Assembly: GCF_021917145.1 (NCBI RefSeq)
Contig: NC_061076.1
Span: 13,160,768 to 13,224,767 of the forward strand
From: Hypomesus transpacificus
Lineage: Eukaryota
Direction: 5' to 3'
Length of the DNA: 64,000 nt
Shown here piece by piece: positions 5,916 through 44,060 of the stretch. Both the position numbers and the translations under genes were made by a program. The notes under the pieces are model-generated. The model was not told the DNA's origin. It made no database searches and saw only the letters and a list, made by a program, of their open reading frames with translations. Every line of letters starts with the position of its first letter. Within the stretch, counting starts at the first letter, position 1.

Positions 5916-6845
5916 ATGGTGCAAGACTTAACTGGACTTCCATTCTATGCCAAAATTATGGTTGTATTCACCTTTCTGTCAGGATCCCTAAAGGGGGGGG
6001 GGGCAGGGCTGTCTCCTTTTCAGTGTTTTTTAATGACTCTAATGAGAATGAGATTGAATTTACCACTGCACTTCTTAATTTATATATTTCTTGTGTCAAA
6101 GTCTACTGTAAGCCGAATTTGTAATAGTACACTAAGTGTAATGTACAGCATGTTGTCTTCATTCATAATATGGCCCAGTAAAGAGCAGATTCAAATCAGT
6201 TTACCCATGTGTTTCAAAAGCAGTAGTTACAGAAATTGTACTTCCATAATAGATTGCTTTGACATTTTCATTGAGAAGCCTAAGAACATGAGAGCCCCAG
6301 CACAAACCTATTCGCAGTATAAGCATCATAATACTGTGAAATATTTGATATCAATAACTCCACAGGGAGTCATATCGTTTGTCTTTACTGGTTGGGGGGG
6401 GCGAACAAGTGATAAGCACATAACACAAAACTGCGGATACCTGGAAAATCTGTCACTTGGTGATGTGGTCCTAGCAGATCGTGGGTTTACCATTGGAGAT
6501 GCTGTGGGCTTGTACAGTGCTCAACTCAAAATACCTGCCTTCACTAGAGGGAAACCGCAACTGCACCCATGTGAACTTGAGTCTACGAGAGGACTTGCAG
6601 CTGTTGGTATCCATGTGGAGCGCGTCATTGGTCTCGTGAGGAACAAGTACACAATCTTACAAAGCACAATACCCATCTCTCTCTGCAAGACTACAACTCC
6701 AGGAGAGCTTCCATCTGTTGACAAAATGGTCAGAGTCTGCTGTGCTTTGTGCAACATTTGCCCATCTGTTGTGCCTTCAGAATATAAATTTCTTTTAAGT
6801 AACATTGTGTTCTCAGTATCTAAATGTATGACTAAATGTAAATGA
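5916..6845 (+). CDS. DDE_Tnp_4 (Harbinger/HARBI1-like) nuclease domain of the THAP-transposase; same frame as the +2 frame of 5811-5868
   Basis: LSPFQCFLMTLMRMRLNLPLHFL...VSKSTVSRI (HTH), IIDCFDIFIEKP, YSQYKHHNTVKYLISITPQGVISFVFTGWGGRTSDKHI, LADRGFTIGD, ...VRVCCALCNICP typical DDE_Tnp_4 blocks. Confidence 0.7.
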   Translation: MVQDLTGLPFYAKIMVVFTFLSGSLKGGGAGLSPFQCFLMTLMRMRLNLPLHFLIYIFLVSKSTVSRICNSTLSVMYSMLSSFIIWPSKEQIQISLPMCFKSSSYRNCTSIIDCFDIFIEKPKNMRAPAQTYSQYKHHNTVKYLISITPQGVISFVFTGWGGRTSDKHITQNCGYLENLSLGDVVLADRGFTIGDAVGLYSAQLKIPAFTRGKPQLHPCELESTRGLAAVGIHVERVIGLVRNKYTILQSTIPISLCKTTTPGELPSVDKMVRVCCALCNICPSVVPSEYKFLLSNIVFSVSKCMTKCK

Positions 6846-7477: not shown

Positions 7478-8572
7478 TCAATTTAAGGCAAGACCTGGGA
7501 AAGTGCTTCCGCATACACTGTCCAGACGTGCAGTTGATGTCATCTGTGTCACCATGTTTACCACAGTAGCATCCAAGTTCAGGTGGATGTTCTGTGGTTG
7601 CCGTGCCTGTGGGAGTATGCTGTGGTGCTGTATACCATTTCCCCAGCAGTTCTGGTCTCCGATCTTGATTAATTCAACCACTTTGAGGTAGGCATTGTGG
7701 AAGAAAACAGGATCATACTGGATCCGCTGGAGGAAAAACTCCTGCGGGGTCCATATCATATGATCACAGTAACTCACTGCGGCAACATGCATTTGAGCTT
7801 GCACTTGGTACATGAACTTGTGGCCAGTCTTCAGTGCCATTGTCCCATCCTCTCCTATGCCTAAACAGAACGATGGATCCTCGCAGCTTTTAGTGAGTGA
7901 GCAGTCCCTGCTGTTGTATGGGCATTTGATCTCCAGAACGCCATCAGCGTGACAAGTGCATGTTACCATGCCATCAGGTGATGCTCACATCCAGGGGAGG
8001 TCTGGGTTGATGATAAACCCTGAAGCTTTAACCTGGAAGTATATACAGTATATTGATAAATTGTACATGGATATTGATAGGCATACATAAATTAATTAAT
8101 CTTTGAATTGCTGATAGACCTAGAATTCTTGGTGATCTTGCATCACAGCTCGATAGTTTTCCCTTGCTTTTTCTTCATTCACTTGACCCCATCTGACAAA
8201 AATGTAAATACAAACTGTTTATTAAAATGTTTTTGTCTGAAGGAGATTTCCTGCCTATCAACATTTACCTAAAGGTGTTGCACTCTGCCATAAAAGCCTT
8301 TGCTTATAATTGACTTTTATTGACTGGCCAAACAAGTTACATGTCAAGTCACTACACAAATCAAACCTTAACGTTAAATTGTGCTTTACTCTGTACCTTG
8401 TTGCCTCGGTGGAAAGCTGAGATGAGCGTGGATAGCATATCCTTTTGATCAAAGACACAGGTCTGTTTGCTTTGGCTGCCTCGCTGAATACTGATGCTGT
8501 GACTCTTCCTGCCCTCTGATCAAACCAAACCCTACTTCTACTTTGTTCCCTGGTCTCCTCCTCAACTACCAA
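7478..8572 (-). pseudogene. YqaJ-like (lambda-exonuclease family, PD-(D/E)XK) nuclease domain gene, two exons (8258-8572 and ~7478-8035), in-frame TGA
   Basis: Exon 1: WFDQRAGRVTASVF (YqaJ N-motif); exon 2: ASPDGMVTCTCHADGVLEIKCPY; own translation of 7970-8035 shows PWM*ASPDG (TGA where G/L expected). Confidence 0.55.
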
Positions 8573-12540: not shown

Positions 12541-13470
12541 TAGATTAGTTTCATAATTCAGTTTCATGATTCAAACAAATTTAACAGGATCCAAACAAAC
12601 GTAACACGATTCATACTAACATAACACGATTCAAACAAACGTAACACGATTCAAACAAACGTAACACGATTCACAAATGTATTTCGTGATTCACAATTGT
12701 AACGCGATTCACAAATAAATGACCCTATTACATTCGTTTGCAACCTGACAAACACAAGTTACAAATCCTTGCATTCGTTGGTGTGAATCCTTGCATTCGT
12801 TCGTGTGGATTTTTGGAACTTTCCTGACGCGCTTTGATCCACAAATGCATTTTTTCTAAAAGATATCCTCAGCAGCCTATCAGATCGTCTCTTCCAATTT
12901 TAGCCAATCACATTAACGTGTCTATGTGGACTTCAACAACCTGCCATAATGACGGACATCGTCTCCTTCAGATCATGAGCAATGTCGTCTGGTAGCATGT
13001 AGGTGAAATATTGCTTGTTAATCTTATTAAACCGATGATCATACCTGATTAAATATTGTTGAGAATGGCAGGATTCATGTTTAGTCATTTTCCGTGTTTC
13101 CTAGACTAACGCAGAGCCCATCTACCCATATTAGACATTTTCCGGTGATTGGCTAAAATTGGAAGAGACGATCTGATAGGCTGCTGAGGATATCTTTTAG
13201 AAAAAATGCATTTGTGGATCAAAGCGCGTCAGGAAAGTTCCAAAAATCCACACGAACGAATGCAAGGATTCACACCAACGAATGCAGGGATTTGTAACTT
13301 GTGTTTGTCAGGTTGCAAACGAATGTAATAGGGTCATTTATTTGTGAATCGCGTTACATTTGTGAATCACGAAATAAATTTGTGAATCGTGTTACGTTTG
13401 TTTGGATCGTGTTAAGTTTGTTTGAATCGTGTTGCGTTTGTTTGTTTGAATTATGAAACTAATCTAACTC
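12541..13470. mobile_element. MITE-like non-autonomous DNA transposon with ~370-bp terminal inverted repeats that contain short tandem aacaaacgtaacacgattc units; absent from the paralogous copy at ~33.9 kb
   Basis: 12541 tagattagtttcataattcagtttcatgattcaaac... is reverse complement of ...gtttgaattatgaaactaatcta at 13447-13470; related fragment at 58230-58310. Confidence 0.65.
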
Positions 13471-13489
13471 CATAGTCGGCTGGTTACGT

Positions 13490-13860
13490 TATTTTGTGAC
13501 CTGTGGACAACGCTGCCGCAACGTTGTACCTTGGTCGGCCGGTTACGTAATTTTTTGGTCCCATGGACAACGTTGCCGCGACGTTGCACCTTGGTCGGCT
13601 GGTTACCTTATTTTTAGACCTGTGGACAACGTTGCCGCGACGTCGTACCTTGGTCGGCTGGTTACGTTATTGTTTGGTCCCATGGACAACGTTGCCGCGA
13701 TGTTGTACCTTGGTCGATTGGTTACGTTATTTTTGGTCCCGTGGACAACGTTGCCGCGACGTTGTACTGTGTTCGGTTGGATGTTATTTTTGGTCCAGTG
13801 GACAACGTTGCCGTGACGTTGTACCTTGGTTGGCTGGATACATTATTTTGGTACCATTAA
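13490..13860. repeat. 59-bp tandem satellite (ggtcccatggacaacgttgccgcgacgtcgtaccttggtcggctggttacgttattttt) x ~6
   Basis: Direct reading; same array at 33840-34380. Confidence 0.85.
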
Positions 13861-14027
13861 GTTGCTGTTAAGTCGCTCTTTGGTCGCAGGACGCAGGATC
13901 TCGAGTGCAATATAGAGGTTTATCCAGAGATGGAGAGATCACACTGGACTGCTCTCAGTTCTGACACTAGTTTAGCTATAGTCTACATGAATTCCAATCA
14001 CACACATTATTAAATGTTGCACCCAGC

Positions 14028-15155
14028 ACAAGGGCTGGGCGGTATGACGGTATATACCGTGCAACGGTAGAAATGTGTCTACCGGGAGAGATTTGGCTAT
14101 ACCGTTTCAACCGCGGTATACTTTATACTATATTTTTGTATTACACGTGTCAATTAACTGTCTGGTTTTTGCATTGTATATAAGCCATCATCAGCCATCG
14201 CGTTCTTGCGATATTTAGATTTGTAGTTTAACTTCTATTTGATTTGCTATTTTCGTTTGACCTGAAGCACATTTGCGTTGGTCTGACGGAATTTTTGATG
14301 TGGAGTGTATTTTGTCTAAGCGGACTGCATCCATGCCAATGCTAATTACTTATATATTTGATGTCCCATTCTGCAGGTAACCAATTCGATTTGTTGTTCA
14401 AGTTTAATGTCTCGCGCTGTAAAATTCTCGTTGTAAAATTACACTGGTGGCGTTGCTAGCATTCTTGATCTAGGACAGGGGTAGGCAACCCAAAATGTTG
14501 AAAGAGCCATATTGGACCAAAAAAACAAAAAACTATTCTGTCAGGAGCCGCAAACAAATTGAAACCCTAATATAAGCCTTATAATGAAGGCAACACATGC
14601 TCTAAGTGTCAATATTAGCTATATTAGCCTATTATCAAAATGATAAGTAGGCTACAAATACATAATAAACATTCATTAAAAAAGCGAGCTAGCTTCCGTT
14701 ACCTAGCAACCTAGCATAACACTCGTAGCAATGCTACTTCCTGCTAGTGTTACTTGTTAGCCTCCTCATTGTAAAATTTGAAGCCATATGATAAAGTTTG
14801 CATAGTCGATAAGATAGATAGGTACTTTATTAACCCCCGAACGCAAATTATTGTGTCCAGGTAGACAGATAGCTAGAAAGCTCACGCAGTCCAGAAAATC
14901 TTTAATCGATAAGTTGGATATTGTAGCCACAGTACAGTTTGAGTCTTTTGTTTTTAACTCAATTGTTGTCTCATGTGACAGTTGTTTTTGTCTGTAATAA
15001 ATCAATAATAGTGTGATGATGTACGGTATGGTTATTTTGTACCATTTCTTAATTGAATTTACAGAACAATTACTATACCGTGATATATACCGTAACCGTG
15101 ATATAAAATTACTCACACCGTGATAGAAGATTTTGGCCATATCGCCCACCACTAC
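14028..15155. mobile_element. hAT-like non-autonomous element (TIR (t)agggctgggcg..; internal caggggtaggcaaccc MITE-like segment); present only in duplication copy 1
   Basis: 14031 gggctgggcggtatgacggtatataccg vs rc of 15125-15155 gggctgggtagtggtgggcgatatggcc; same TIR family as 26431/30560. Confidence 0.45.
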
Positions 15156-17274
15156 CCAGCCCGTATAAATGTAGACAATGCACGTAGCCTAATTCATGTG
15201 CTGCTCAGCCCCAGCATGTCATTGGTAATCAATTTTCTCATATGCAGAAACATAGCTTTAATTTAAAAAAAGACTGAATTTGGAATATAATTTAGTCTTT
15301 CATTCTTTACTATAAACATGTACAAAAGCAATCAATGTGTGATGTGTAACATGATTGAGCAAACATTCTTTGTATAGCACACCAAAGCTGTATGACAAAC
15401 AATACAAATTTGTGCTCAAATAATTTTGTAATACAAAATTGTTAAATGTGACCGAAAGGTATGCGACTCTTAAGAGTATCATTTCCAAAGACAAGTCATC
15501 ACAGAATATTACAATTCTTCCTTAGCAAACCTGCCCTTCAGTCTGCCCCTGAGCAACAACTTTGCGCATGCCCATTTCAACGCATCGCTGAAATTGAAGT
15601 TTCAGAAGAGATTTTGCAGGGGTTCAACCGCATTGGATTTCAACTGGAAATTAGCTACTTCAAAGGTGAGGCTTCTTTACAGAAATTGTTTTAAATATAT
15701 AAACATATTTTCAGAAATTGATGGGGCATTCTATAACGTATAGGTTGAAATTGAGGCTATTTAGACTGTTAATGTGCTATCAGATTCACATTGTTTACGT
15801 TAGGATGTCGCTAGCTACAGTAGAGGTTAAACCCTCCAGAGGTTTATGTTGAAATACTGATTATACATGTTATAATACTTTAATACATGTTGTTAAAGTT
15901 TAGTGTCTCCCAAATATCCCAGAAGAATCAGTGAAAATAAACGTTCAGAACTGTTAGAAAACCTTGTCCTAAAATAGTTATTTAGCCCTGAATTTTCAAA
16001 GACTGGAGCTAGAGCGTGGCTAGCTCCAAAGCAATGGTGTCTATAAAAGTGTCATGTCACTAATTCTTCCAAATTGTACATTACATCTGTTTTGGATACG
16101 TTTATTTGTTTTAACCTTTAGATGCGTGAGTTCTAAATATTTCCGACGTTTCCACCAGAGTGAGTTATTTTTCCAAAACGGAAGCTAGGTAGCTTTAATC
16201 TTCCTTTACCTAGCAACCTAGCATAATCCTCGTACCAATGTTACTACTTGCTAGTGTTACTTGTTAGCATACTAATTGTAAATTTTGAAGCCATACTATA
16301 GCGTTTGTCATATAGTTTTTGTCTATCGAAAAATAGTCGGTTGGAATGTTCAGAATCACACATGTGCGACGCTACGCTGTGGGGCCCTGCCTTCAAACGA
16401 TCACATGTGCGATATGCTACTCCTTTCATATCAATATACTAATACTATGTACGTAGGCTAAACTACATTCCACTTTCATTTCTGTACAGGTTATCCTACC
16501 ACCGTCACACGGCCTAGCACTGTGTCCCTAGGAAATTATGGTAAAGTAATGAATGGCCGTTTATAACATTGAAAATAATTGTATGAGCCATGGCAAAGGC
16601 TATGTTTTGAAGCAAAAGCATGACTTTAAACTTTTGAATCACCAGATACCATACCCCTAGGTGTCAACTCTGGTCTGGTGGAGGAGAACCCATAGGGGGC
16701 CCAGGAAAACAGCTGGCAGCCAGGCAAGTGCAAATATAAGACACTATATAAAATACTTAAAAGCTTCTCAATAGCATTGCCAACTCATTGTAAGGCATAC
16801 ATAAGTTGTTCCGATCGTGGCGTGGGGATACATATTTGTCAAAACAACAAATGTTGTCATACTAATGCTTTGTATACAACCATTCAAGGTAACATTTGTT
16901 ATTTACATCAATGTTACAGCTAATCTAGACGAACCACAGTGTATGCCAATCATGCTAACTCTTGTAAGCTTGTTTTACTGGTCTTTAATGACAGACACAT
17001 TACAGGTTATGCACCAGAAGATGGAGACATAGGAGGAGAACCAACGAGAGGTTCTCCTATTCAGGCGACTACAGGACAGACACTGAAGAGGTGCCAGTGA
17101 TGGACCTACGGGTGGCCTAAACACAGTCTGAACTACAAGACCGTGAAGAGCGCCTTAAGGTGCTTTAGTTCCGAAAGAGAGTGGTAGGTGTTACGAAATG
17201 CCATGAACTATGGCTTACACGCAGCGTTCAACGCTCAAATTGATGCTAACGATAAGTTCATGTTCTAATTGCAG

Positions 17275-17377
17275 ATGCTGTGATGAAGTGGAAGACGGGA
17301 CTGGGAGAGAAGGCTGTGGAGCTCCTCATAGCGGACACACTCAAACACGCCCCGGCAGCCCATTCAAAACAAGCCAG
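17275..17377 (+). other. putative internal coding exon of an unidentified (probably decayed) gene: ..AVMKWKTGLGEKAVELLIADTLKHAPAAHSKQA(R)
   Basis: ttctaattgcag acceptor, gtgaatg donor, open in one frame, phase-compatible with next exon. Confidence 0.3.
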
Positions 17378-17572
17378 GTGAATGAATCATGATTGCAGCT
17401 TCCATATCCAACCTTTCACATGGCTATGTGACAAAAAACGAGAATCCCGTTATCTTTTTTTGATGAAGTATATTGTTCTAGATGTGATTTTTTTATGACT
17501 TGTATAGCCCCTTTCGCACGTGCAATTATGTTGATAGGACAATAACTTATTTTGTGCTTCATTGTCAGGGCC

Positions 17573-17642
17573 ACAGACAGGATCTGTAGCGGAGACTGGC
17601 AGAAGATTTTCATTCACTGTTTGGCACTTTGTTTGAAATAAA
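17573..17642 (+). other. putative terminal exon (R)ATDRICSGDWQKIFIHCLALCLK* followed immediately by AATAAA
   Basis: cattgtcag acceptor at 17564-17572; phase 2->1 join with previous exon gives AGG; stop TAA overlaps aataaa at ~17637. Confidence 0.3.
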
Positions 17643-17822
17643 AAAGACTGAATGTTGCATGGAAATGCTGCCTTATTTATGCTTGAGTTAGGCTACACAT
17701 CACACATAATCCTCCTAAAGTTGGCTACCATGTAGCCTATTATACAAGAACAAGTAGCATTTTGGGCATAAGCAGTAGAATTGAGAAATGTAGGTTAGTT
17801 AATTGACGTTGCAGTTACGGAC

Positions 17823-18389
17823 TAGCCTGGCTCTGCCCTCCTACATACTTCCGCTCAATTTAGATTTCGCTTCTGCACTAGGTCTGGGAGTTTGGCTTTG
17901 AAGTCGGTTTTCTTCAGAAAAAATTTTTTGTAAGTCCAATCAGCGAACAGAGGGAGTGGCTGAGAACGATGACGTTAATGTCGTGCACTAGTTTGAGTAG
18001 TTCAGTAATGGCGGCGGAGAAAGATGCGACCGAAGCTATTCTGCGGTTGTGGCAACGCTGCCGAATATCCATAAGTTATAGCCGGTGCAAGAACATTGCT
18101 AACTGAGATTTGTTGTTGGCCATGATGTCGTGGCCCTCCTCCCCACGGGGTTATGGAAAAGTTCCATTTTTTCCAGCTACGGCAGCTAGCTCCGTTACAG
18201 CAGTGGTGAAGGAGTTGGCTAAGGTGAACGCTAGCGATTGGTCATGGCAGATCAGAGTGGCTCTGGGCAGATCCAATAGTTTTAAACTTCAACAGTACCC
18301 GCCTTCAAGGAAGTTAACGCTTGTCAATAGAGCGATCCCAGACCCTCTGTACAAATGAAATGTACAAGGGTCTGGTTAGGACCAGGCTA
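17823..18389 (+). mobile_element. 567-bp non-autonomous DNA transposon (TIR TAGCCTGG...CCAGGCTA, 9-bp TSD GTTACGGAC) carrying CCAAT+CRE promoter and ORF with RecQ-like helicase motif I (frameshifted in this copy)
   Basis: TSD gttacggac at 17814-17822 and 18390-18398; empty site gcagttacggactagcaacgtcac in paralog at ~38010; ccaatcag and tgacgtta upstream of ATG at 18013; MAAEKDATEAIL... Confidence 0.7.
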
Positions 18390-18751
18390 GTTACGGACTG
18401 GCAACGTCACAAAATTACGTTGCTAGGAGCTCCTTTAGAGCATAGAAGTAAAGGAAAAAAAAACTTTTTTGAAAACTCATGTTTTTATTGGTATTTTTTC
18501 ATGTCCATTACAATGGACGCCAGGACTAAATGAGCGTAAAATGCCATGAAAACTTAGTTTTACATAGGCCATGTTTTTAAGATGGGAATCATGTAACAGT
18601 GGAACCTCCAAACACAATTAAGTTGATTATTATCTTATTATCTTATCGTATTGTTATACTTTTAATATTGTAAGCTAATAACAGATCACACAACTATTAA
18701 ACAAATGGAAAATAACAAAAATACATCTCCCGGATTTTCCCATATATTCTC

Positions 18752-20397
18752 TCATTTGCGATGAGCAGCCTTAAAACAGTTTCGGTGTGGCACAAAGCAA
18801 AGGTGGATGTTGCATTTGTCACAGAATACACGTGTTTTTCCTGTGCAGTATGGCCTCTTGCACCTGGTGGCCTCTGTCTTCTCATCATAATTTGGCATGT
18901 GGTCAACCATATCATACTGCACTTCAGGTAGAGGTCTTGCATCTTGAACTCGTGGTCTGTGGGCATGTGGTTGTGGCTCTGGAGACATACTGGGCCTTTC
19001 ACGTTTTGATGCCACTGGTTTATGGACACTCACCAGACACCGGGCCACATTCATCTTGAAATGGAGGAGATCCAGGGTGTCTTTTGTCTGGAGATTGGCC
19101 CTCTTGGCATCCAGCCTGTACTCCAGCCAACTGTTGACGACAGCCAAATCACAAGCGTGTGATCATTCTCAGGGTCCACTTTCTTGACCGAATTTCTGTG
19201 CGGTACAGACTGACAAGTTGATGAAGTAGGTCAACACCTCCCATCGCTTCATTGTACAGCTTGACCACCTCTGGAAGGGACACCTTCAAAAATCTTTTCT
19301 GCTTTTTATCCCACCGCTGCACCTCATCCATCCTGCTAACACCAACAAATTTGGAGGCCATGACAACTGATCTGCTGTCAAACCATTTGACCAGTGCGAC
19401 CTTACCATCACGGCTTACAGCTTCATCGCAGCTTCCTCGTGGCATTTTTGTCATCACTTTGTCGGACTGTAGAGGAGGGTTGGACAAGCGACAGATCCTT
19501 GCTGTTCCAGCGGCATGAATTTTCCTCTCAGCCAGCAGTTCCAGAATATTGTATGACGTGAAATAATTGTCAAAATACAATTTGTGGTTGGCCTCTGTGA
19601 TGCGCTGGCAGAGATGGTACACCACTCCAGCTCCAAGTCTTAGCTGCGTCTTCAACTGCTTTGACACTTCCATTGTAGCCCCTTGATGCAGCAGGAAGTC
19701 ATAGGCCATGCCACTTTTCTCACACAGGAAGTATAATTTCACCCCCCAAGGGTATGGCTTGCCTTTAACATACTGCTTGACGGAGAGAGCTCCACGAAAT
19801 GGCACCATTTGTTCGTCAACACAAAGGTTTTCCTCTTGTGGAAGCTCCAAGCATCTCCTGCGCAGGGCATCAAAGAGAGGACGTACCTTATAAAACACGT
19901 CATTGTTCTCTGCTGGCCTCTCCAAATTGTTAACCAAATGCAAATGTGACCGAAGCTGGAAGAATCTGTCACGGATCATAGTGTTACGAAAAATACCAAT
20001 GTCCATCCCGGCTCCCCAGTACATGGAGACTCTTGGCATTTTCATCACGCCCATAGCAAGGTGGAGACATTTACATTACATTACATTTACATTTATGCAT
20101 TTAGCAGACGCTTTTATCCAAAGCGACTTCCAAGAGAGAGCTTTACAAAAGAGCATAGGTCACTGATCATAACAACGAGGTAGTCCCAAACATTGCAAGC
20201 AGCCAAAACATGAAGCATACATTGTGGAAAACTAAACAAGTGCCAAGGAGACCAATGAGGGTTCTGAGTTCTCCTGAACTGGTGGGTTTGAAACCTAGTG
20301 TGCCACTTTGCATTGCATAGATGTTGGTGCTGTCAGACCAAATCAGATCGAAGAGTTCATCTGGTACATACGGTTTGAAGTATTCGTATGGGCTCAT
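18752..20397 (-). pseudogene. piggyBac-family transposase (DDE_Tnp_1_7 + C-terminal CRD zinc finger), frameshifted and interrupted by a SINE-tail insertion
   Basis: ORFs 20167-20397 (N-term ELFDLIWSDSTNIYAMQ), 19149-20054 (core ...NYFTSYNILELL...GTARICR...), 18752-19147 (CKRPYCTGKTRVFCDKCNIHLCFVPHRNCF). Confidence 0.7.
20055..20235 (+). mobile_element. SINE/LINE-tail repeat fragment (catttagcagacgcttttatccaaagcgacttcc...) inserted inside the piggyBac ORF; same family at 62281-62455
   Basis: Near-identical 180-bp string at both locations. Confidence 0.7.
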
Positions 20398-25909: not shown

Positions 25910-28890
25910 CCCATGTTAGAAAGGACCTGCAGCAAGATGAAGGCAGAGAAGTACAGAAAAGAGAAGAAAAATGCTAAAGTACTGGCAGTTGGAAGGTACT
26001 GCTGTAAAAGATATTTTAAAGGACCTGGAGCAAGATGAAGGCAGAAAACAGAAGAAAAATGCAAAACAAAAAGGAGAAAAATTCAGAAAGTTGAGCTGCA
26101 GGACAATGTGAAAATGTAGCAGAAAACCAGTTGCTGAAGTCTGGGTTGAACGAATTTGAAGGTATAAGGACAACACTGAAATGACTTGAACTTGCTGGAA
26201 AAAAGGCAGAATTGAATCCTAGCGGTTTAAAGAAGGCGATGGAAGATTATGTTCATATTTTGAATTATTTTTCAATCCTTAAAAAATGAAGTCACCTAAA
26301 GATGCAAAATAAGTTGAGAAAAGGGAAAAATTAGCAGAAATGTAGTTGCTAGAGCTCTTTTCAGAGCTGGAAAGTACTTGTGGAACTGAATAAGCACTGA
26401 AAAACAAACATGTAAAAAAGAACAGTGCAATTAGGGCTGGGCGATAAATCGATAAAAATAACTATCGAAGTAATGACTTCCCTCAATAAAGATATCGTAA
26501 CATTAATTCATTTTCAATAATAACGATAGAGAATAACAGCAGTCCATTTAATTTCTGTGATGCAGCAGGAAGTTGCGGAGAAATGGTAGCCTACGTTCAC
26601 TAAAATATACTGACGCGGATTAATATTAGTCTTATTGCCGAAAACAGTGGCAGCGATAGCCATGGCGAGGGAGCAACTTCCAATAAAGAAATTATTGATA
26701 AAAAGGGTTTGTCTTCTTCAGTTATTTGGAAGTTGTTTGAATTTTTGAAATCCGACAAAGAGCAGCAATGTTCGGTGCAAATTGGTGTAGTAAACAAACA
26801 CGTGGCTACCAAGTCTGGTAATACGACAAACTGCAAATGTGGACTTCTTGTTGATCTCGACCTACGATCTTGGTTAACAAACGTTTTAACAAATCTCTGC
26901 TTACAAAGGTGTTGGTAGATCTGTCGAAAGTCCATACTTGTTTTTTTATATAATATAACAACACGTAGGAAAATCCCAAATCAAACACAACGAATCTGGA
27001 GCAGACGCCATGTTGTCAACATCTCCAAGGCAGCCGCTTGCTAGGTCCTTTTTTTTGCAGATTTCTTAGAACATCTCTGGACATATAAGAACAGCGTTTT
27101 GGTCCAATTATAACACTAATATATAAGAAACCTTTTTTACCACCTGAAGCAAAATCACTCGTTGGAACATGCTGAAAGTGTGAGTTTGCGCCAAGGTATT
27201 GATAAGTAGAATATTGATAAAAAGCAAGGTTTTAAAAAGCTTAAAGCCATATGGCAGGTTAACCACCACTGTCGATTAATGGGTACATAAAGCACTCAAG
27301 ATATGTATAATATTCAAGAAATCTCCAAATTATGTCTCAAAATGGTGTTTAAGACTAGTTTTTGTCACTTGTTGTGTTAGCATATAAGGGCAATTCGATG
27401 ATGACGTCACGTTGGGGAGTCGTGGAGCTGAGTAGCCTCAGTCTAGTACTAGAACTATGGTGAATGACCGGGATGAAGAAGAGGTGGCAAGAACCACTAA
27501 TGTATATGATGGCCCGCAGCCGGCCGTTAAAGCCAAATCAATGATTCATGTATCATTTATTAAATGATTCATTTATTAAACTGTTCATTGTACCAAGGAG
27601 AATTAGTGGAGAGTTGATGAAGTGTCCTCCTGGTAAGTTGCTATCATTTAGCAACGCAGCAACCGCCTCTGGACCACGAACAGCAGTGCACATAAATAAT
27701 TTATTTTTACTGTCAGTGAATAGCACCGAGTGGAAGTCAACGTTATCTTTATATCTAGTGATCATTCAGGGCCTGACATTACTTTTTGAGGCACTACACT
27801 AGCCTACATTTACGTTTCACTTTTCTATGCACAAAAGTAACGTACGGGTAAACAATGTGCCTTTGACCAACGAAAATGAGCTGTAATATTATACAAATGA
27901 TAACAATTAAGGTGTTATAAAAAAACTGTATTTGTAACATTAAACATTTACACAATTTTGCAGAATGAAACACTTTCTATTATGTACTGAAGCGTCGTCC
28001 CAATATCTCTTATCGCTTGTTACTTGAAAGAGGAATTATTTACTCCGTCCTATCAGTTACATTATCAGGGCTTGGAAATACTGTGTATTGCTAAAGTAGG
28101 CAAATGGCTAATAGTAGAACATAACATTTGATAATACTTTCAGTCAATCAAACAGCTGCAAGATCCAGTGAAATGTTGTATACAGCTAGAAAAATAACGT
28201 TAGCTACTGTAGCATCGCCAACGACATTGGTTAACTCAACTTCGGTAGGCATTCCTCAGTATTTGCAAGCTGGCCTGTGCATGTAACATGCCATTTTATT
28301 TTGTTTGAGTTTAAACTTGTCCAGTGGGGCAAGTACAATCTTTTCCACTTGCCCTACAAATCCACTTGTCACGGCAAATCATGTCGTTGTAGTTCAGATA
28401 AGTAGACTACCGGGTAAATGTAGCTCTATCTATATCTAGAAGACAGCCCATAGCTAGCCTATAGCTAGCATGATAACTTGCCAGTCCCACCTGTAAAATC
28501 CCCCCAAGATCATCAAAAATTAAATATTTTCCCCGACGTTGGATACACTTTTCCAATTAGATGTCCCACGTTTTGATGGTACTAGCAGGGCCCGTTTTAG
28601 ACATGCTCTGGTACCAGCGTAGTGTTTTTGTAATCGATTTCAATGGTCTCAAAGCAGACTTTTGTCTGTTGTCTCCCCAACGTGACGTCATGCAATGCAT
28701 TGTGGGGGAAAGAAAAATCATTGCAAAAGATAGCTACTTTTTCGTATTATATTGCGTTTTGTGACACCCAACAACATCAAATACAATGGATAACAGTTTA
28801 AATGTTTATTACCAACAAGCAAATAGCGCAAATTCGTTGGAAAATGTACCTGCCATATGGACTTTAAGTTACTTGACCCCAGGTACGTGC

Positions 28891-29456
28891 TAGCCTGGTC
28901 CTAACCAGACCCTCGTACATTTCATTTGTACAGAGGGTCTGGGATCTCTCCATTGACAAATGTTAACTTCCTTGAAGGCGGGTCCTCTGTTGAAGTTTAA
29001 AACTATTGGATCCGCCCAGAGCCACTCTGATTTGCCATAACCAATCACAAGCGTTCGCCTTAGCCAACTCCTTCACCACTACTGTAACGGAGCTAGCTGC
29101 CGTAGCTGGAAAATCAAACTTTTCCCAAACCCCGTGGGGAGGAGGGCCACAACATCATGGCCACCAACAAAACTCAGCAAGGAATGTTCTTGCTCCGGCT
29201 TTAACCTATGGATATTCGGGCAGCGTTGCCACAACCACAGAATAGTTTCGCTCGCATCTTTCTCCGCCGCCATTACTGAACTACTCAAACTAGTGCACGA
29301 CATTAACGTCATCGTTCTCAGCCACTCCCTCTGTTCGCTGATTGGACCTACAAAAAATGTGTTTCTAGAAACCGACTTCAGAGCCGAGCTCCCAGACCTA
29401 GTACAGAAGCAAAATTCAAATTGAGCGGAAGTAAGTAGGAGGGCAGAGCCAGGCTA
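28891..29456 (-). mobile_element. second copy of the 567-bp TAGCCTGG-TIR transposon with intact 64-aa+ ORF (MAAEKDASETILWLWQRC...LPTGFGKSLIFQL)
   Basis: 9-bp TSD ggtacgtgc at 28882-28890 and 29457-29465; ORF 29079-29312 (-). Confidence 0.7.
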
Positions 29457-29540
29457 GGTACGTGCTCCATGGCCGCAAACATTTCTCTCACACCGCTCTG
29501 CCTAAAACTTATGCTGAGTGTAGGGAAAAAGTTGGGAGTA

Positions 29541-29647
29541 GGGAGTCAGGTGGCTGAGTGGTTAGGGAATTGGGCTAGTAATCTGAAGGTCGCCAGTTCG
29601 ATTCCCGTCTGAGCCAAAATGACGTTGTGTCCTTTGGCAAGGCACTT
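29541..29647 (+). mobile_element. tRNA-derived SINE, 5' part (split by insertion 29648-30352)
   Basis: gggagtcaggtggctgagtggttagggaattgggctagtaatctgaaggtcgccagttcgattcccg...ggcaaggcactt. Confidence 0.8.
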
Positions 29648-30352
29648 TGACTACAGGGCGTGTTTCAAACGAGCCTGGAAAACAAATACCTCTTCGCTCA
29701 ATTGGATAGATCTACAACCAATCAGAGCAACAGAGTATGTGACGTATGTTAAGCACCGCATAGTTGTTGTCAACAGAACTAAACTACAAGCAGACTTGAA
29801 GAATGAATACAAACGATTTTTGCCGGTGTTGTAAAATTAATTTAAGGGTAGGGAGAGTACTTGTTCACACGGTCAACCTTTTTGAGCGAAACAATAAAGG
29901 GCAATGCATATACGAAGTTCTCCGTTTAGGATTACAACTCCATCGGGGCCAGCTGATAGATTAATCTTTTACCGAATCCCGTAGGAAGGACGGCAAAAAC
30001 ATATTTTCCATCGACAAATGCCTTGATTGCGTCTCTCTGTTCCTCTTTCAAAATAAATGCGCTGTCGATGTCTTCTAAAACAGACTCGATGGCAGTATCA
30101 TAACATCCCAGATCTCCAGCGGTAGCCATGTTTGTTCAAAACGAATTCAACTTAAGCGCTCTTTTGTGACGTGGGTGATTATGTTACTGTTGATCATCTG
30201 TCCATCATCGTATAAAGCCCGCCCTGGCAATTTAATTGGTTCGCCCAGATTCTGGTTTTCTGTAGTTGGTCCCCAATACGAGACCCTCCAGACCCAACTT
30301 CCCGACCAAATTCCTTGGGGGGCGGGGAGAAGTTGGGCTGGCAGCCAGGCTA
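29648..30352 (-). mobile_element. diverged third copy of the promoter+RecQ-motif-I element inserted into the SINE (right TIR ccaggcta intact, left end degenerate)
   Basis: ORF 29932-30129 (-) ...FVDGKYVFAVLPTGFGKRLIYQL; upstream (minus) gaaccaattaaa CCAAT, ccagggcgggc GC box, cacgtcac; ends ...ggcagccaggcta at 30352. Confidence 0.5.
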
Positions 30353-30440
30353 ACTTCACCCTACTTGTGTCAGGGGAATGTCCCTGTACTTACAGTAAGT
30401 CGCTCTGGATAAGAGTGTCTACTAAATAACTAAATGTAAG
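30353..30440 (+). mobile_element. tRNA-derived SINE, 3' part (cttcaccctacttg...gtaagtcgctctggataagagtgtctactaaataactaaatgtaa)
   Basis: Continues the SINE consensus interrupted at 29647. Confidence 0.8.
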
Positions 30441-33769: not shown

Positions 33770-34380
33770 AGCTAACACATGACGTTGCGGCAACGTTGCC
33801 AGTAAGTGCTCAGTTGGTAACCCGCGACGTTACCTTCTGGCAACGTTGTGGCAACGTCGTAGCAACGTTATAAAGGGAATGTTGCCAGTTGGTCCCATGG
33901 GCAACGTTGCCGCGACGTCGTACCTTGGTCGGCTGGTTACGTTATTTTTAGACCCGTGGGCATCGTTGCCGCAACGTCGTACCTTGGTCGGCTGGTTACG
34001 TTATTTTTTGGTCCCATGGACAACGTTGCCGCAACGTCGTACCTTGGTCGGCTGGTAACGTCATCTTTAGGTCCATGGGCAACGTTGCCGTGACGTTGTA
34101 CCTTGGTCGGCTGGTTACGCTATTTTTTGGTCCCATGGACAACGTTGCCGCGACGTCGTACCTTGGTCGGCTGTTAACGTCATTTTTAGGTCCGTGGGCA
34201 ACGTTGCCGCAACGTTGTACCTTGGTCGGCTGGTTACGTTATTTTTTGGTCCCGTGGACAACGTTGCCGCGACGTTGTACCTTGGTCGGCTGGTTACCTT
34301 ATTTTTAGACCCGTGGACAACGTTGCTGCGACGTCGTCCCTTGGTCGGCTGGTTACGTTATTTTTGTCGCAGGACAACGG
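33770..34380. repeat. ACGTTGC-rich block plus 59-bp tandem satellite (paralog of 12410-13860, lacking the MITE insertion)
   Basis: Same unit as 13490-13860, ~9 copies. Confidence 0.85.
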
Positions 34381-34399
34381 ATCTTGAGTGCAATATAGT

Positions 34400-37300
34400 G
34401 GTTTATATATATAAATGTAGACAATGCATGTAATTCATGTGCTGCTCAGCCCCAGCATGTCATTGGTCATCAATTTTCTCATATGCAGACACATAGCTTT
34501 AATTTAAAAAAAGACAGAATGTGGAATATAATTTAGTCTTTCATTCTTTACTATAAACATGTACAAAAACAATCAATGTGTGATGAGTAACATGATTAAG
34601 CAAACATTATTTGTATAGCACACCAAAGCTGTATGACACACAATGCAAATTTGTGCTCCAATAGTTTTGTAATACAAAATTGTTAAATGTGACCAAAAGG
34701 TAAGCGACTCTTAAGAGTTTCATTTTCAAAGACAAGTCATCACAGAATATTACGATTCTTCCTTAGCAAACCTGCCCCTCAGTCTGCCCCTGAGCAACAA
34801 CTTTGCGCATGCCCATTTCAACGCATAGCTGAAACTGGGATCCCTAAACAGATTTTGCCGGGGCCGCACCGTCTTTCACACAATGGATTTTACCTGGAAA
34901 TAAGTTACTTCAAAGGTGAGTTTCTTTACAGACATACTTTTAAATATATAAACATATTTTCAGAAATTGGATGGGGCATATAGGTTTGAAATTGATTTGT
35001 TTATAGCGTTATATCAGATTCACATTGTTTACGTTAGGATTTCGCTAGCTAGGTTAAACCCTCCAGAAAGTTATTTTGAAATACTGAAAATGCATACATG
35101 TTATCAAAGTTTAGCGTCTCACAAATCACCCTCAAAAGAATCAGTGAAAATAAACGTTCAGAACTGTTAGAAAACCTTGTCCCAAAATAGTTTATTTAGC
35201 TAGCCCTGAATTTTCAAAGACGCTAGCGCGTGGCTGATCAGGTTCACAGTCGGTCATGGCATGCACAGCAATGGCGTCTGTAAAAGTATCATGTCACAAA
35301 TTCTTCCAATTTGTACATGACATCTGTTTTTGGATACGTTTATTTGTTTTAACCTTTAGATGCGTGAGTTCTAAATATTTAGAACTTTATTTAGAGACAC
35401 TTTCACCAGAGTACGTGAGTTATTTTCCCAAAACAGAAACTATGTAGCTTTAATTAGCTTCCGTTACCTAGCAACCTAAGATAATACCAAGCCCCCACCC
35501 CTCGCCCCTTGGCTTGAAGCAACGGCCCCGGTGGATGTAGGTGGTATTGCATGTACGGCTAGGTTTCCGACTCTTCCGGTCGTTTTTATTCTATTAACTC
35601 CATTCAACATTTACAAAACTATCTCCCCCAATAATTTTTGTTTGATTCTCGAACCCGGCTCATACTACTAGCTTTTTCATAGAATAATTTTTCCAGATTT
35701 TTGCTAAATTTGAAACCAATCCGAAATGGGTAAACTAGCAACCCATTTATTTGCTTAGTCAATGAAAGTTGCCTGCAAATGTGCTCGCGAATACTAACAG
35801 GGCACGAGCACAAGAGTTCACATTGGCCGATAGCCGATTTACATGAGCTCTCGGAGCTAGGGAAAAAAAGAGCCACTGTTTAAAGCTAGACAGGAAGACA
35901 CGGAAGTGGAAAGATGGCCGCGTCCAGTCTCGCGCTCTCGCTTGCCTCACTGCGCCACTGAGCACTTTTCATAGAAATGAATGGGGACGCCATCTTGGAA
36001 GACAAAAGTAGCTTACTCTAGTTATATTAACTCTATGGATAATACTCGTACCAATGCTACTTGCTAGTGTTACTTGTTAGCCTACTAATTGTACATTTTG
36101 AAGCCATACTGTAGTGTTTATCATATAGTTTTTGCCCATCGGAAAATAGTTGGTTGGAATGTTCAGAATCACACGAGCGATGCTACGCTGTGGGGCCCTG
36201 CTTTCGAACGATCACATATGTGCGATGCTACTCCAATATCAATATACTAATAGAATGTACGTAAACTACATTCCACTTTCATTTCTGTACAGGTGATCCG
36301 ACCACCATCACAAGCACTGTGTCCCTTGGAAATTATGGTAAAGTAATGAATAACCGTTTATAACAGTGACAATAATTGTGTGAGTCATGGCAACCCTAAA
36401 GGCTATGCTTTGAAGCAAAAGTATGACTTAAAACGTTTGCATCACCAGATGCCATACCTCTAGGTGTCAACTCTGGTCTGGTGGAGGAGAACCCATAGGG
36501 GGCCCCGGAAAACAGCTGGCAGCCAGGCAAGTGCAAATATAAGACACTCAAAAAAATACTCAAACCATTGCCATTGTAAGGCATACCTAATTGTAAGGCA
36601 TACTTAAGTTGTTCTGATCGTGGGGGGAAACATTTGTCAAAACAACAAATGTTGTCTTACTAATGCTTTGTATACCCCATTCAGCTGTACCATCTTGGGC
36701 AAAGACCAATCAAGGTAACATTTGTTATGTACATCAATGTTACAGCTAATCTAGAAGAACCACAGTGTATGCCAATCATGCAAACTCTTGTAAACTTGTT
36801 TTACTTGTCTTTAATTACAGACACATTACAGGTTATGCTCCGAAAGATGGAGACATTGGAAGAGAACCAGTGAGAGGCTCTCCTGTTCAGGCGACCACAG
36901 GGCAGACACACTGAAGAGGTGCCAGTGATGGACCTACAGGTGGCCCAAACACAGGCTGAACTCCAAGACCTTGAGGAGCGCCTTAAGGTGCTGGAGTTGC
37001 GAAAGAGAATGGTAAGTGTTTGGAGATCCCATAAACTATGGCTTACACGCATTCAACGTTTCACATTGGTGCTGACAATAAGTTCATGACTTCTAATTCC
37101 AGACGCTGTGATGAAGTAGAAGACGGGACTGGGAGAGAAAGCTGTGGAGCTCCGCATAGAGGAAACACTCAAACACACCCCGGAAGCCCATTCAAAACAA
37201 GCCAGGTGAATGAATCATGATTGCAGCTTCCATATCCAATCTTTCACATGGCTATGACACAAATCTAGAATCACATAATATTTTAATTGATGATGTATAT

Positions 37301-38030
37301 TATTTTAGATGTGATTTTTTTAATGACTTGTATAGCCCCTTTTCACACGTGTGATTATGTTGAATTGAACACTAACTTATTTTGTGCTTCCTTGTCAGGG
37401 CCAACAGACAGGACTCGTAGCGGGGACTGGAAGAAGATTTTAATTCATTTTTTGCACTTTGTTTGTTTGGCACTTTTGTTTTGCAGTGTCACTTTTTATC
37501 ACGTATGTATATATTTTGGCCATTTTCGTTTTTATTTTAAATGTTACATGCATACTTTGTGCATTGTCATTTTAGCAGACGCTCTTATCCAGAGCAACTT
37601 ACATAGTAAGTACAGGGTAATTCCCTGGAGGAAAGTAAGGTGAAGTGCCTTGCCCAAGGACACATCATTTGGCAACCTTCTGATTTAATAGCCTGATTCC
37701 CTAACCGCTCAGCCATCTGACTCCCCTTTAGTATAGGTAGATCACATATTTAGGATTCCTATATGTTGAATGTATTTACCTTCCTGCTAAAGTAAATTCC
37801 TTGTCTGTGCAAACTTTCATGGCGATTAAAACACTTTCTGATTCTGAAATGCTGCCTCGTTTATGATTTAGCTTGAGTCAGGCTACACATCCCACAAACA
37901 TATTCCTCCTAACGTTGGCTATCTATTATACCAAAACAAGTAGCGTTCTGGGCAAATGAGGTCTGCATATGAAATACAGGTTACTTCATAATTAAGTAAA
38001 TTATTAACGTTGCAGTTACGGACTAGCAAC
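34400..38030 (+). repeat. segmental duplication copy 2 (paralog of 15160-17822) with extra inserts incl. SINE at 37567-37727
   Basis: See copy 1. Confidence 0.85.
37567..37727 (-). mobile_element. tRNA-derived SINE (truncated)
   Basis: cattttagcagacgctcttatccagagcaacttaca...ctaaccgctcagccatctgactcccc. Confidence 0.75.
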
Positions 38031-38300
38031 GTCACAAAATGACATTGCTAGGAGGTCGCGGTTACAGACTGGCAACGTCCCAAAACAACGTTGCTAGGAG
38101 GTCGCGGTTACGGACTGGCAACATCAGAAAATTACGTTGCTAGGAGGTTGCGGTTACCGACTGGCAACGTCCCAAAACAACGTTGTAAGGAGGTCGCGGT
38201 TACCGACTGGCAACGTCGGAAAATAACGTTGCCACGACGTCGCGGTTACTGACTGGCAACGTCGGAAAATAACTTTGCCACGACGTCGCAGTTAGACTGG
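38020..38300. repeat. ~46-bp tandem satellite (gcggttaccgactggcaacgtcggaaaataacgttgccacgacgtc) x ~6; target site of Pack-type TE in paralog
   Basis: Direct reading. Confidence 0.85.
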
Positions 38301-40826: not shown

Positions 40827-41129
40827 TGTAGGTTAGTGCATGACATGTGCACCAGCAAATACTATTTCAAAATAAACTCCTGCATTAAAATAATGTATCA
40901 TGAGTTTGTATGATTTGGTCATGTATTATCACACTAGCATTTAATTATCACGTCAAACAATTACACTGCACTAAACTGTAAGTGTAAATGTAAAGTGAAA
41001 ATAACAAAACCAGTCAGTATGATGACTTGAGCGAATATCATTCATTCACGTCTTACTAAAACAGCGGCCACGCGAAAGGGAATAAGGAAACTGTTTCCTC
41101 TACAAAAAAATACAATGCGGGTCACGTGA

Positions 41130-41560
41130 AAAAAGGATCCAAAGACTCGTAGAAAGACCGAGTCGGTGAAGGAACTAATCATTCGTTTCCTCTAGCTACA
41201 GAGCCTATGCAGGTCACGTGAAAAATGATCCAAAGACTCGTAGAAAGACCGAGTCGGGAAAGGAACTAATCATTCGTTTCCTCTAGCTACAGAGCCTATG
41301 CAGGTCACGTGAAAAATGATCCAAAGACTCGTAGAAAGACCGAGTCGGGAAAGGAACGAATCGTTCGTTTCCTCTTGCTACAGCCTATACAGGTCACGTG
41401 AAAAATGATCCAAAGACTCGTAGAAAGACCGAGTCGGGAAAGGAACGAATCGTTCGTTTCCTCTAGCTACAGAGCCTATGCAGGTCACGTGAAAAATGAT
41501 CCAAAGACTCGTAGAAAGACCGAGTCGGGAAATGAACGAATCACTCGTTGAGAGGACTCG
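41130..41560. repeat. ~87-bp tandem repeat x5 (gtcacgtgaaaaatgatccaaagactcgtagaaagaccgagtcgggaaaggaac(t/g)aatc(a/g)ttcgtttcctctagctacagagcctatgcag)
   Basis: Direct reading; contains cacgtg E-box in each unit. Confidence 0.85.
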
Positions 41561-41857: not shown

Positions 41858-43017
41858 ATGGCGCATCGTTTTGAAAGGTGGGATCATTTGGAGGACGAGG
41901 AGGAGATGATAATAATGCCTGTTTTGCGTCGGCAACATGTTCTTCGCGATAGGTTACACCCCTTAGACATATATGACGACTTTGATTTATACTCGCGCTT
42001 TCGTTTTCCAAGAGCGAAGATACAGACAATTACCGATCTGCTAGCTGCAGGCTTGCAGCACGACTCCGACAGAAACGGGGCCCTAAGTCCGTCCTTACAA
42101 GTGTGCCTGGCATTACGCTATTTCGCTACGGGCTCATTTCAAAACTTGGTTGGGGATTCAATTCAAGTGCATAAATCTACAGTTTGTAGAGCAATTAGAA
42201 AAGTCGCACTATCATTGTGTAAGCGCTTGAACGATTATGTAAAGTTTCCAACTCAACCTGAGCCACAAAACACGACCCGTCAGAAACTCCATCAGATAGC
42301 CGGTTTCCCTGACATACTTGGCTGTGTAGATGGCACCCACATCAGAATTAAGGGACCCAAAGACAACGAGAATGACTTTGTGAACAGGAAGGGATACCAC
42401 TCGATCAACACACAGATTGTATGTGATGCTGACCTTTTAATTACAAATACAGTGATAAAATGGCCAGGGGCAAGCAATCTAGCCTTTAGAGAGATTTTGA
42501 GGCTGGACGATACTCCGGGAGGTTGCTAGGAGATTCAGGGTATCCCTTGAGAAAATGGCTTATGACCCCATACCTAAACCCAGCAAGTGTCAGTGAGCAG
42601 TGCTACAATTCAGCACACACCAAGACCAGAAATGTGGTAGAGCGGTGCATAGGTGTTCTGAAGAACCGATGGGCCTGTTTGCACAGAGGTATCCAGCTAT
42701 ATTTTATTCTAACTTCATTGCCTACTTAATTTTAAGCACTGCAGGCTCTGGATCCTCACATAGCCTTTTATGTCCCCAAATGAATACCTACATGCCTTCC
42801 TTTTGTCATAGGCATCTTGATGGAGCCTCACAGAGCTGCCGCTGTAGCTGGTGCCTGCATTGTCCTACACAACATGGCAATGATGTGGAAAGTACCACTG
42901 GTGGAGGAAAGAAATGCAGATGATAGGGGTGACATAGACATTCCCTTCGGCGAGGACAACCTACCAACTGAGGCTACCACTGTCCGGACCTATCTTACTA
43001 CATCCTACTTTGGATGA
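41858..43017 (+). pseudogene. PIF/Harbinger (HARBI1-like, DDE_Tnp_4) transposase; frameshift near 42510 and possible intron/indel 42730-42816
   Basis: GFPDILGCVDGTHIRIKGP...FVNRKGYHSINTQIVCDADLLITNTVIKWPGASN | LLGDSGYPLRKWLMTPY...NSAHTKTRNVVERCIGVLKNRWACL | ...AGACIVLHNMA in three frames. Confidence 0.7.
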
Positions 43018-43352: not shown

Positions 43353-44060
43353 TTATGTTTCTGCTTGTATCTTTTCTGTTTCCTGTTTGAGCTTTTCAAT
43401 TTCCGCTTTAAAGAGTTGACATCTCAGTGTGTCAATATTTTCCACTGTGCAAGGAGTAGGAGGCCTTCTGTTGCCTTTAGCACGCTTGGCTGCTGGTGGT
43501 AGGTGGGTGTTGGAGCCATCCTGAGGTGTCTCAAGCAGACATGTTTCTGCAGGTGGGGAGAGGGGTTGTTCGGCTGTATGAGGGGGAGGTGGTGCTGGTG
43601 TTGGTGCGAGGGCTGTTGCTGGGAGAGATTTTGGAGAAACTGGTGCCGGAGCATCTTCTGCTGTTCCACTCTCAACCCCACATGAAATCCCAATTACTGA
43701 GGGGGAGTCCTCACCAACAATGTCCAATACAAGAGATGAATATGGTCCCATGTCTGGCTTTGGTCCACCTCCTGTTGGGACATTTCGTGGAAAGTCCTCA
43801 ACGGCTTGCATCTTTAAATCACTCCACTTCTTTCTAACTTTCTTGACATCCCTGTGCTCCACTCCTTTCGAATTGATGGTGTCTGTGATGTCCTCCCATA
43901 TTTGTTGTTTCACTTTATTTGTTACAAAGGTGTTAAATGTGGATTCTAATGGTCCTTTGTTTAATTTATATTTTGAAAGCAGGATGAGGATTTCTTCATG
44001 GGTGAAGTTTTTCTTTCTTGGCCTACGGTCAGACATTGCCAAATTCCTGAAACAGCACAA
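43353..44060 (-). CDS. Harbinger-associated Myb/SANT-like DNA-binding protein (Myb_DNA-bind_5-type), intact 235-aa ORF, convergent with transposase
   Basis: FTHEEILILLSKYKLNKGPLESTFNTFVTNKVKQQIWEDITDTINSKGVEHRDVKKVRKKWSDLK. Confidence 0.65.
   Translation of the reverse strand: MCCFRNLAMSDRRPRKKNFTHEEILILLSKYKLNKGPLESTFNTFVTNKVKQQIWEDITDTINSKGVEHRDVKKVRKKWSDLKMQAVEDFPRNVPTGGGPKPDMGPYSSLVLDIVGEDSPSVIGISCGVESGTAEDAPAPVSPKSLPATALAPTPAPPPPHTAEQPLSPPAETCLLETPQDGSNTHLPPAAKRAKGNRRPPTPCTVENIDTLRCQLFKAEIEKLKQETEKIQAET

Follow-up and report, generated by a model that had tools for sequence, protein, structure and literature searches.

Whether a 567-bp repeat that carries the start of a RecQ-like helicase open reading frame (ORF) has taken this fragment from a host gene, or has kept it from a gene of its own, was asked for the unit at 17823-18389 (+) in a 64,000-nucleotide (nt) stretch of Hypomesus transpacificus DNA (NC_061076.1, positions 13,160,768 to 13,224,767; hereafter the window, with positions counted from its first letter). 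A reading made from the letters alone (hereafter the sequence-only reading) had described the unit as a gene-capturing, Pack-type transposon present in three copies, and had not recognised the family. The family is a known one: the 567-bp units are very probably non-autonomous, internally deleted derivatives of a DNA transposon of the AcademH type, a lineage of the Academ superfamily described by Kojima (2020, Mob DNA 11:15; PMC7165386).

The limits of the unit were set by comparing its two clean copies. Copy 1 (17823-18389, +; 567 bp, helicase-side end on the left) and copy 2 (28891-29456, -; 566 bp, same family, opposite orientation) were aligned end to end and were identical in 91% of 570 columns over their full length (92% by blastn), their similarity breaking off exactly at the terminal TAGCCTGG and CCAGGCTA. 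As the sequence-only reading had claimed, each copy is bordered by a perfect 9-bp target-site duplication (TSD): GTTACGGAC at 17814-17822 (left) and 18390-18398 (right) for copy 1, read directly, and GGTACGTGC at 28882-28890 and 29457-29465 for copy 2, both repeats being identical. The terminal inverted repeat (TIR) is 8 nt long, TAGCCTGG at 17823-17830 (+) forming the helicase-side end of copy 1 and its counterpart (CCAGGCTA on the + strand) at 18382-18389 (-) the transposase-side end. With 1.7 occurrences expected, TAGCCTGG is present six times in the window, five of them as element ends. An insertion-free site had been placed at ~38010 and was found there as a single, uninterrupted GTTACGGAC at 38015-38023, in the paralogous half of a segmental duplication (roughly 13.3-18.5 kb vs 33.8-38.1 kb, 91-95% identity). 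Because this paralog keeps one unbroken target, insertion of copy 1 postdates the duplication; the matching ends, the 9-bp repeats and the empty paralogous site mean, therefore, that the element boundaries and the TSD length are real. A hexamer, GTCTGG, lies inside each end of copy 1, at 17882-17887 (+; element nt 60) and at 18338-18343 (-; nt 47 from the transposase-side end), and is a candidate transposase-binding site.

The duplication spans ~5 kb (about 13350-18500 vs about 33800-38100, offset ~19.8-20.2 kb). The duplicated segments include tandem repeat arrays with units of 119 nt (and 59/60 nt) at 13351-13888 and 33804-34460, and a short repeat of ~59 nt (38030-38200) adjoins the target site of copy 1.

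AcademH elements are defined by a DDE transposase and a RecQ-related superfamily 2 helicase encoded in opposite directions and by TSDs of 9-10 bp; their 5' end is a pyrimidine and their 3' end a purine, and their TIRs range from 8 to 575 bp, with 8 bp in AcademH-2_PSt (PMC7165386). Perfect TSDs of 9 bp were found in six of the seven elements compared that have both termini, namely copies 1 and 2 and four relatives from other sources described below (L001, L002, L003 and L006). The ends of the window elements (TAGCCTGG...CCAGGCTA) are pyrimidine and purine, respectively, and are similar to characterised AcademH ends: AcademHP-1_SP starts with TAGCCTGACCAGAC in the consensus file, as machine-read from its PDF, and with TAGCTGACCAGAC in the termini figure, an A. 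digitifera (Acropora) family starts with TAGTCTGG and AcademHP-1_SKow with TAGCTGTGGG (PMC7165386). For AcademHP-1_SP and AcademHP-1_SKow, the sequences used are a machine reading of the supplement, with errors in the text. A remnant of the third hallmark, a RecQ-related helicase, is present as a first exon in all three window elements, and full genes collinear with it are present in L002 and L003.

In copy 1, a promoter-like block was located at 17934-18029 (+), with CCAAT at 17936-17940 (element nt 114), TGACGTTA at 17970-17977 (nt 148) and the helicase ATG at 18008 (nt 186), in agreement with the CCAAT and tgacgt elements that had been noted upstream of an ATG. The frameshifted remnant of helicase exon 1 (motif 0 + motif I) occupies 18008-18222 (+), reaches a stop after 32 amino acids (aa) and was matched at 18028-18174 in tblastn searches with two amphioxus helicases (P0148 and P0157). 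The corresponding ORF of copy 2, MAAEKD...LKPEQEHSLLSFVGGHDVVALLPTGFGKSLIFQL, lies at 29079-29273 (-) and encodes 64 aa plus stop when read from MAAEK, or 77 aa from an upstream ATG; a product of ~115 aa, as had been proposed, is encoded by neither copy. A 1-nt deletion in the ORF is common to both copies, and the ORF of copy 2 is open solely through a second, compensating 1-nt insertion. The two copies are otherwise short and non-coding and encode no transposase, and a search of the window yielded no helicase or transposase sequence of this element type beyond the stubs.

The RecQ-like character that the sequence-only reading had given the ORF holds beyond PTGxGKS. Pfam DEAD matched the copy 2 ORF with an E value of 1.7e-4, which is under the gathering cut-off. 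When a profile of the window ORFs was compared with solved structures, the result was RecQ-specific: human RECQL1 came first, with an E value of 1e-7 across the 53 residues that hold motif 0 and motif I; bacterial RecQ, RECQ5, BLM, WRN and RECQ4 came next, and DEAD-box proteins scored far lower.

Closer relatives of the ORF than cellular RecQ were found in transposons. In an exhaustive profile search with the window ORFs, the best full-length matches (66-84 bits, vs 35 bits for the best solved cellular RecQ) were helicases of 350-620 aa with the same N-terminus, from amphioxus and from teleosts (Neogobius, Acanthochromis and Nothobranchius). Two of the amphioxus helicases have informative neighbours in the accession series, XP_002591964.1 being adjacent to XP_002591963.1 and XP_019624894.1 close to XP_019624892.1; both XP_002591963.1 and XP_019624892.1 are listed by Kojima as AcademH transposase-like (PMC7165386). 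The locus of XP_019624894.1 (Branchiostoma belcheri KV411614.1) was found to hold an element of 9,064 bp (L002:9817-18880) with perfect 90-bp TIRs starting TAGCCTGGGTACC, the same 8 nt TAGCCTGG at its start and the 9-bp TSD AGGTAAGGG. Its helicase ATG is placed 184 nt inside the left terminus, compared with 185 nt in copy 1. A convergent gene of 992 aa encodes the transposase, in which Pfam DUF6589 and a zinc finger of the CCHH type were recognised. A search with the transposase core returned 141 homologs. The transposase is 50% identical (E 6e-146) to a protein (P0262) whose 90%-identity cluster includes XP_019632652.1, the transposase of the published AcademH-1_BBe, and it also matches XP_022063315.1, one of Kojima's teleost remnants. 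In Pfam, P0262 and XP_022063315.1 have DUF6589, no other transposase domain and no MULE (Mutator-like element) domain.

DUF6589 also matches XP_019632652.1 (AcademH-1_BBe) and corresponds to the core of the AcademH transposase. A literature mention of 'DUF6589' was found in a single paper, on a rust fungus. Among teleosts, homologs of the transposase were found in Engraulis, Alosa, Mugilogobius, Knipowitschia, Misgurnus, Megalobrama, Phoxinus, Sander, Gadus, Nothobranchius, Pleuronectes and Epinephelus.

A second, apparently intact element of 10,248 bp was identified in the anchovy Engraulis encrasicolus (L003:6812-17059 in CM068268.1). It is bordered by the 9-bp TSD GCTCATTAC and has the ends TAGCCTGG (left) and TAGCCTAG. 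Its transposase is read inward from the left, one paralog being 1,012 aa long, and at least nine paralogs that are more than 90% identical are present in the anchovy genome. Its helicase, 587 aa long, is read inward from the right, with the ATG 203 nt from the end. In the published AcademHP-1_SKow, helicase exon 1 likewise points inward; it is located ~540-660 nt inside the 3' terminus and shows 41-44% identity with the window ORFs by tblastn.

These elements bear directly on the capture of a host gene. In such an event, a non-autonomous and possibly Mutator-like element would have acquired the promoter and 5' portion of a host gene for a RecQ helicase; the ORF is indeed significantly RecQ-like, the element is otherwise short and non-coding, and a 9-bp TSD is typical of MULEs too. 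Capture was rejected, and is judged highly unlikely, because, in the autonomous elements of two distant chordates, the exon is found equally far inside the shared terminus, because two families in the window that are unrelated at the DNA level both carry it, and because the exon is much closer to transposon helicases than to cellular ones. With the window ORFs, the amphioxus helicases share 50-61% identity (50% for copy 2 vs the transposon helicase P0157), the anchovy helicase 49-50% and human RECQL1 38%, and the profile scores fall in the same order. The associated transposases are of the DUF6589/AcademH type and have no MULE domain, and the TIRs are only 8 bp long. What remains of the Pack-type description is that the unit is a DNA transposon, is non-autonomous, and has a 9-bp TSD, short TIRs, a promoter-like block and a RecQ-like N-terminal ORF; capture from a host recql gene and the likeness to Pack-MULEs fall away, the exon being collinear in autonomous AcademH elements. 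The alternative that the sequence-only reading had offered, a family-specific passenger ORF, came closer to the truth, in that the ORF appears to be a remnant of the element's own helicase gene. Since the elements are in all probability AcademH internal-deletion derivatives, the CCAAT block with its element resembling a cAMP response element (CRE) would be the native promoter region of that gene and not a captured one.

The second DNA-unrelated family is represented by the element at 29648-30352 (-), which had been counted as a third, diverged copy inside a short interspersed element (SINE). Two of the three proposed copies hold, and the third belongs to a related but different family: by blastn it has 10 terminal nucleotides only in common with the 567-bp unit, and the helicase ORFs of the two are 48% identical at the protein level. 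The helicase-side terminus of this AcademH deletion derivative is intact (30345-30352, TAGCCTGG), and the other end has been lost. Comparison with an intact relative on an ENA contig (L001:9780-10375), which ends in TAGCCTGG...CAGGCTA and has the 9-bp TSD GTTATAATC, indicated that ~57 nt of the transposase-side terminus are missing, and no intact TSD is present. The helicase exon-1 ORF (29932-30129, -; 65 aa) is read inward from the TAGCCTGG terminus; its identity is 61% with amphioxus P0148, falling to 50% with the helicase of the anchovy element and to 38% with human RECQL1. Towards the other end, at 29803-29964 (+), lies a stub starting MNTNDFCRCCKINL..., preceded by CCAAT and TGACGTAT in a second CCAAT/TGACGT block; the first 50 residues encoded by this stub can be aligned with positions 1-51 of P0384, the AcademH transposase from anchovy (E 6e-7). 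The element thus holds a stub of each gene, with the helicase and the transposase N-terminus at opposite ends, and, besides the helicase stub, retains a putative transposase promoter and the first transposase codons.

The SINE that received this element is split into halves at 29540-29647 and 30353-30440. It has a tRNA-like head, which was not recognised by ARAGORN, and a tail ending ...gtaagtcgctctggataagag..., which we take to be of a kind found in fish SINEs. The flanks of the element share ACTT only; this fits an original 9-bp TSD ACTTCACCC that was partly lost with the deleted element terminus.

The layout of the helicase-side end is shared throughout. GTCTGG was found at nt 59-60 from that end in copies 1 and 2, in the element at 29648-30352, in L001 and at both ends of the amphioxus element; the anchovy element has GTCTAG at the corresponding helicase-side position and GTCTGG at nt 45 of the transposase-side end. 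In every fish element, the autonomous anchovy copy included, CCAAT is found 109-114 nt from the helicase-side end, and the helicase ATG comes after it at nt 184-224. This layout is what decides against a chance resemblance, in which the units would be an unrelated family of miniature inverted-repeat transposable elements whose 8-nt terminus and TSD length happen to coincide with those of AcademH. In its favour, the TIR is only 8 nt long and blastn detects no further DNA similarity to the autonomous elements. Against it, the units agree with AcademH in terminus and TSD length, in the positions of GTCTGG (nt 60), CCAAT (~nt 112) and the ATG (~nt 185) and in the helicase exon, and the element at 29648-30352 agrees in its transposase N-terminus too; taken together, these coincidences make the likelihood of a chance resemblance negligible.

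An AcademH origin of the 567-bp units would imply a parent with a RecQ-related superfamily 2 helicase gene starting ~185-200 nt inside one terminus and a convergent DDE transposase gene (DUF6589) starting a few hundred nt inside the other, each with a promoter near its terminus. A deletion running from the end of helicase exon 1 to within ~170 nt of the transposase-side terminus would have taken out nearly all that lies in between, leaving both termini, the subterminal GTCTGG, the CCAAT/CRE-like helicase promoter and helicase exon 1 (motif 0 + motif I). The copies would then have been moved in trans by the transposase of an autonomous relative, with a 9-bp staggered cut of the target giving rise to the 9-bp TSD. 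Staggered cuts and mobilisation in trans are general to DDE transposons, and the TSDs of copies 1 and 2 are consistent with both.

Several observations weigh against this account. Among the relatives examined, no autonomous partner with DNA-level identity to the ends of the 567-bp unit was found; what the units have in common with the anchovy and amphioxus elements is limited to the 8-nt terminus, some short motifs and the coding exon. By blastn, the window elements showed no DNA similarity to either beyond a 69-nt exon stretch, and neither is the direct master. To our knowledge, transposition of an Academ element has never been demonstrated experimentally. A further family-1 copy on an ENA contig (L008) has both termini between unmatched flanks and no TSD, and may represent a chimeric low-coverage assembly. 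Finally, the promoter block and the ORF are better conserved than the adjoining 50-nt stretch, as a pure relic would not predict; this could reflect requirements in cis or lower CpG decay.

Copies from other sources were examined as well. An ORF profile retrieved 347 distinct short ORFs (55-113 aa), nearly all on short ENA metagenome contigs, which are taken as host (fish) DNA. Many different deletion junctions were found in these stubs directly after ...SLIYQLAP. Of the family-1 copies on ENA contigs, L006 is complete, with the TSD GTTAAGAAC, and L004, L005, L007 and L009 are truncated or rearranged and uninformative as to TSDs, L005 being without some motif I residues. When seven family-1 copies were aligned, conservation was poor at nt 62-112 and was seen in the outermost 60 nt, the promoter block, the exon and a 3' block. 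JGI metagenome contigs yielded nothing in a scan for the transposase-side terminus or in a scan for a degenerate motif-I coding pattern.

From this conservation it could be argued that the retained promoter and helicase N-terminus of 57-64 aa are functional and kept by selection, not as a chance outcome of the deletion, either as a cis-acting module for transposition or transcription or as a small Walker-A peptide that modulates the autonomous helicase. The longest identical stretch of copies 1 and 2 is a run of 96 nt from CCAAT to codon 7 (17934-18029 in copy 1, 29250-29345 in copy 2), with seven CpGs, in copies otherwise 9% diverged (P about 0.003); constraint, absence of CpG decay or chance could account for this identity. 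Across sources, conservation extends to the promoter, ORF and 3' blocks but not to nt 62-112; dN/dS among four intact copies is 0.26-0.50, in a sample with a bias for open ORFs; and exon 1 is present in every one of many independent deletion derivatives. This retention of exon 1 is, however, an ascertainment artefact, because the copies were found by an ORF-based search, and intact ORFs were preferentially sampled by the gene caller. Copy 1 is frameshifted, the frameshift is common to copies 1 and 2, L005 is without motif I residues, and substitutions by codon position (11:13:21) gave p = 0.15, which is not significant. A function of the retained module for the non-autonomous element is therefore unlikely, and its maintenance by selection is distinctly improbable; the ORF is better read as a presumably decaying relic of the parental helicase gene, with the CCAAT/CRE block a putative promoter.

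Other features of the window were recorded alongside. PIF/Harbinger-type transposase ORFs (DDE_Tnp_4, HTH_Tnp_4) were found at 5916-6845 (+) and 41858-42529 (+), the latter paired with a Myb/SANT-like ORF at 43353-44060 (-) in the usual two-gene Harbinger layout. A piggyBac-type transposase fragment (19149-20054, -; DDE_Tnp_1_7, E 8e-62) lies ~760 bp downstream of copy 1, and an uninterrupted Tc1/mariner-type transposase ORF of 357 aa (HTH_Tnp_Tc3_2 + DDE_3) lies at 54625-55698 (-). Remnants of long terminal repeat retrotransposons extend over 56552-60373; an ORF at 59783-60373 (-) has an integrase zinc-binding domain, and ORFs at 56552-57826 had no Pfam match and are gag-like by eye only. An ORF of 163 aa at 7478-7969 (-) gave a weak YqaJ-like exonuclease match (E 0.005, under the cut-off) and may belong to another mobile element. 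The ORF at 52006-52458 (+), presumably the C-terminal exon of fructose-bisphosphate aldolase, is probably the only host gene signal seen in the window. A tandem array at 41111-41549 consists of ~90-nt units in at least four copies, 63-96% identical.

For the window, an apparent gene capture becomes an ordinary deletion derivative with a family name, that of a family seldom described from fish. In the one study devoted to AcademH, Kojima recovered nothing intact from vertebrates, where single-locus remnants were limited to some teleosts, and reported no non-autonomous families from teleosts; internally deleted, non-autonomous 'AcademH-N' families were described in sea urchin and other species, among invertebrates and fungi (PMC7165386). 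Relative to that survey, the clean multi-copy teleost non-autonomous families and the apparently intact multi-copy anchovy element appear to be new, although they may already be in Repbase or Dfam. The anchovy element, the transposase homologs in over a dozen teleost genera and the hundreds of exon-1 stubs point to a wider and more recent history of AcademH in vertebrates. A bolder proposal, which we regard as unlikely, is that AcademH is active now or was so recently in teleosts, and that the amplified non-autonomous families keep the ~300-nt promoter and exon 1 module because it is needed for propagation, as a cis element or as a Walker-A peptide interfering with or recruiting the helicase. 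The family would be useful for fish repeat annotation, where its stubs risk being annotated as 'RecQ-like' gene fragments, and could give a vertebrate system in which to test why a cut-and-paste transposon carries a RecQ-type helicase.

Set beside cellular RecQ helicases (RECQL1, BLM, WRN, RECQL4, RECQL5 and bacterial RecQ), the stubs share the N-terminal helix, motif 0 and motif I (PTGxGKS), but their identity is 38% only and the diagnostic residues differ (PTGFGKSLIYQLAP vs PTGGGKSLCYQLPA); the full-length relatives match Pfam DEAD and Helicase_C only and are encoded inside transposons. Like the Pack-MULEs of plants, the units are non-autonomous, have 9-bp TSDs and hold a gene-like fragment between their termini; unlike them, they carry a gene of their own family, are without the long TIRs of MULEs and are associated with a transposase that is not of the MULE/MuDR type. 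In AcademHP, two PHD fingers are the defining feature of the transposase, whereas a CCHH zinc finger is present in the transposases of the amphioxus element (CREPGCPRVFVYPKARITHERKEH) and of anchovy P0384 (CRAPGCQQVYTYPKSRDNHELKKH), and no Pfam PHD match was obtained. The TAGCCTG-type terminus of the window element matches that of AcademHP-1_SP, read as TAGCCTGACC in the machine-read consensus file and as TAGCTGACC in the termini figure. With AcademH at large, the window elements share the 9-bp TSD and the T...A termini with a short TIR, and their relatives share the opposite-strand helicase and transposase genes, with transposases homologous to that of AcademH-1_BBe. What sets them apart from the AcademH elements of the 2020 paper is that they are multi-copy teleost deletion derivatives with clean TSDs, accompanied by an apparently intact 10.2-kb element in anchovy.

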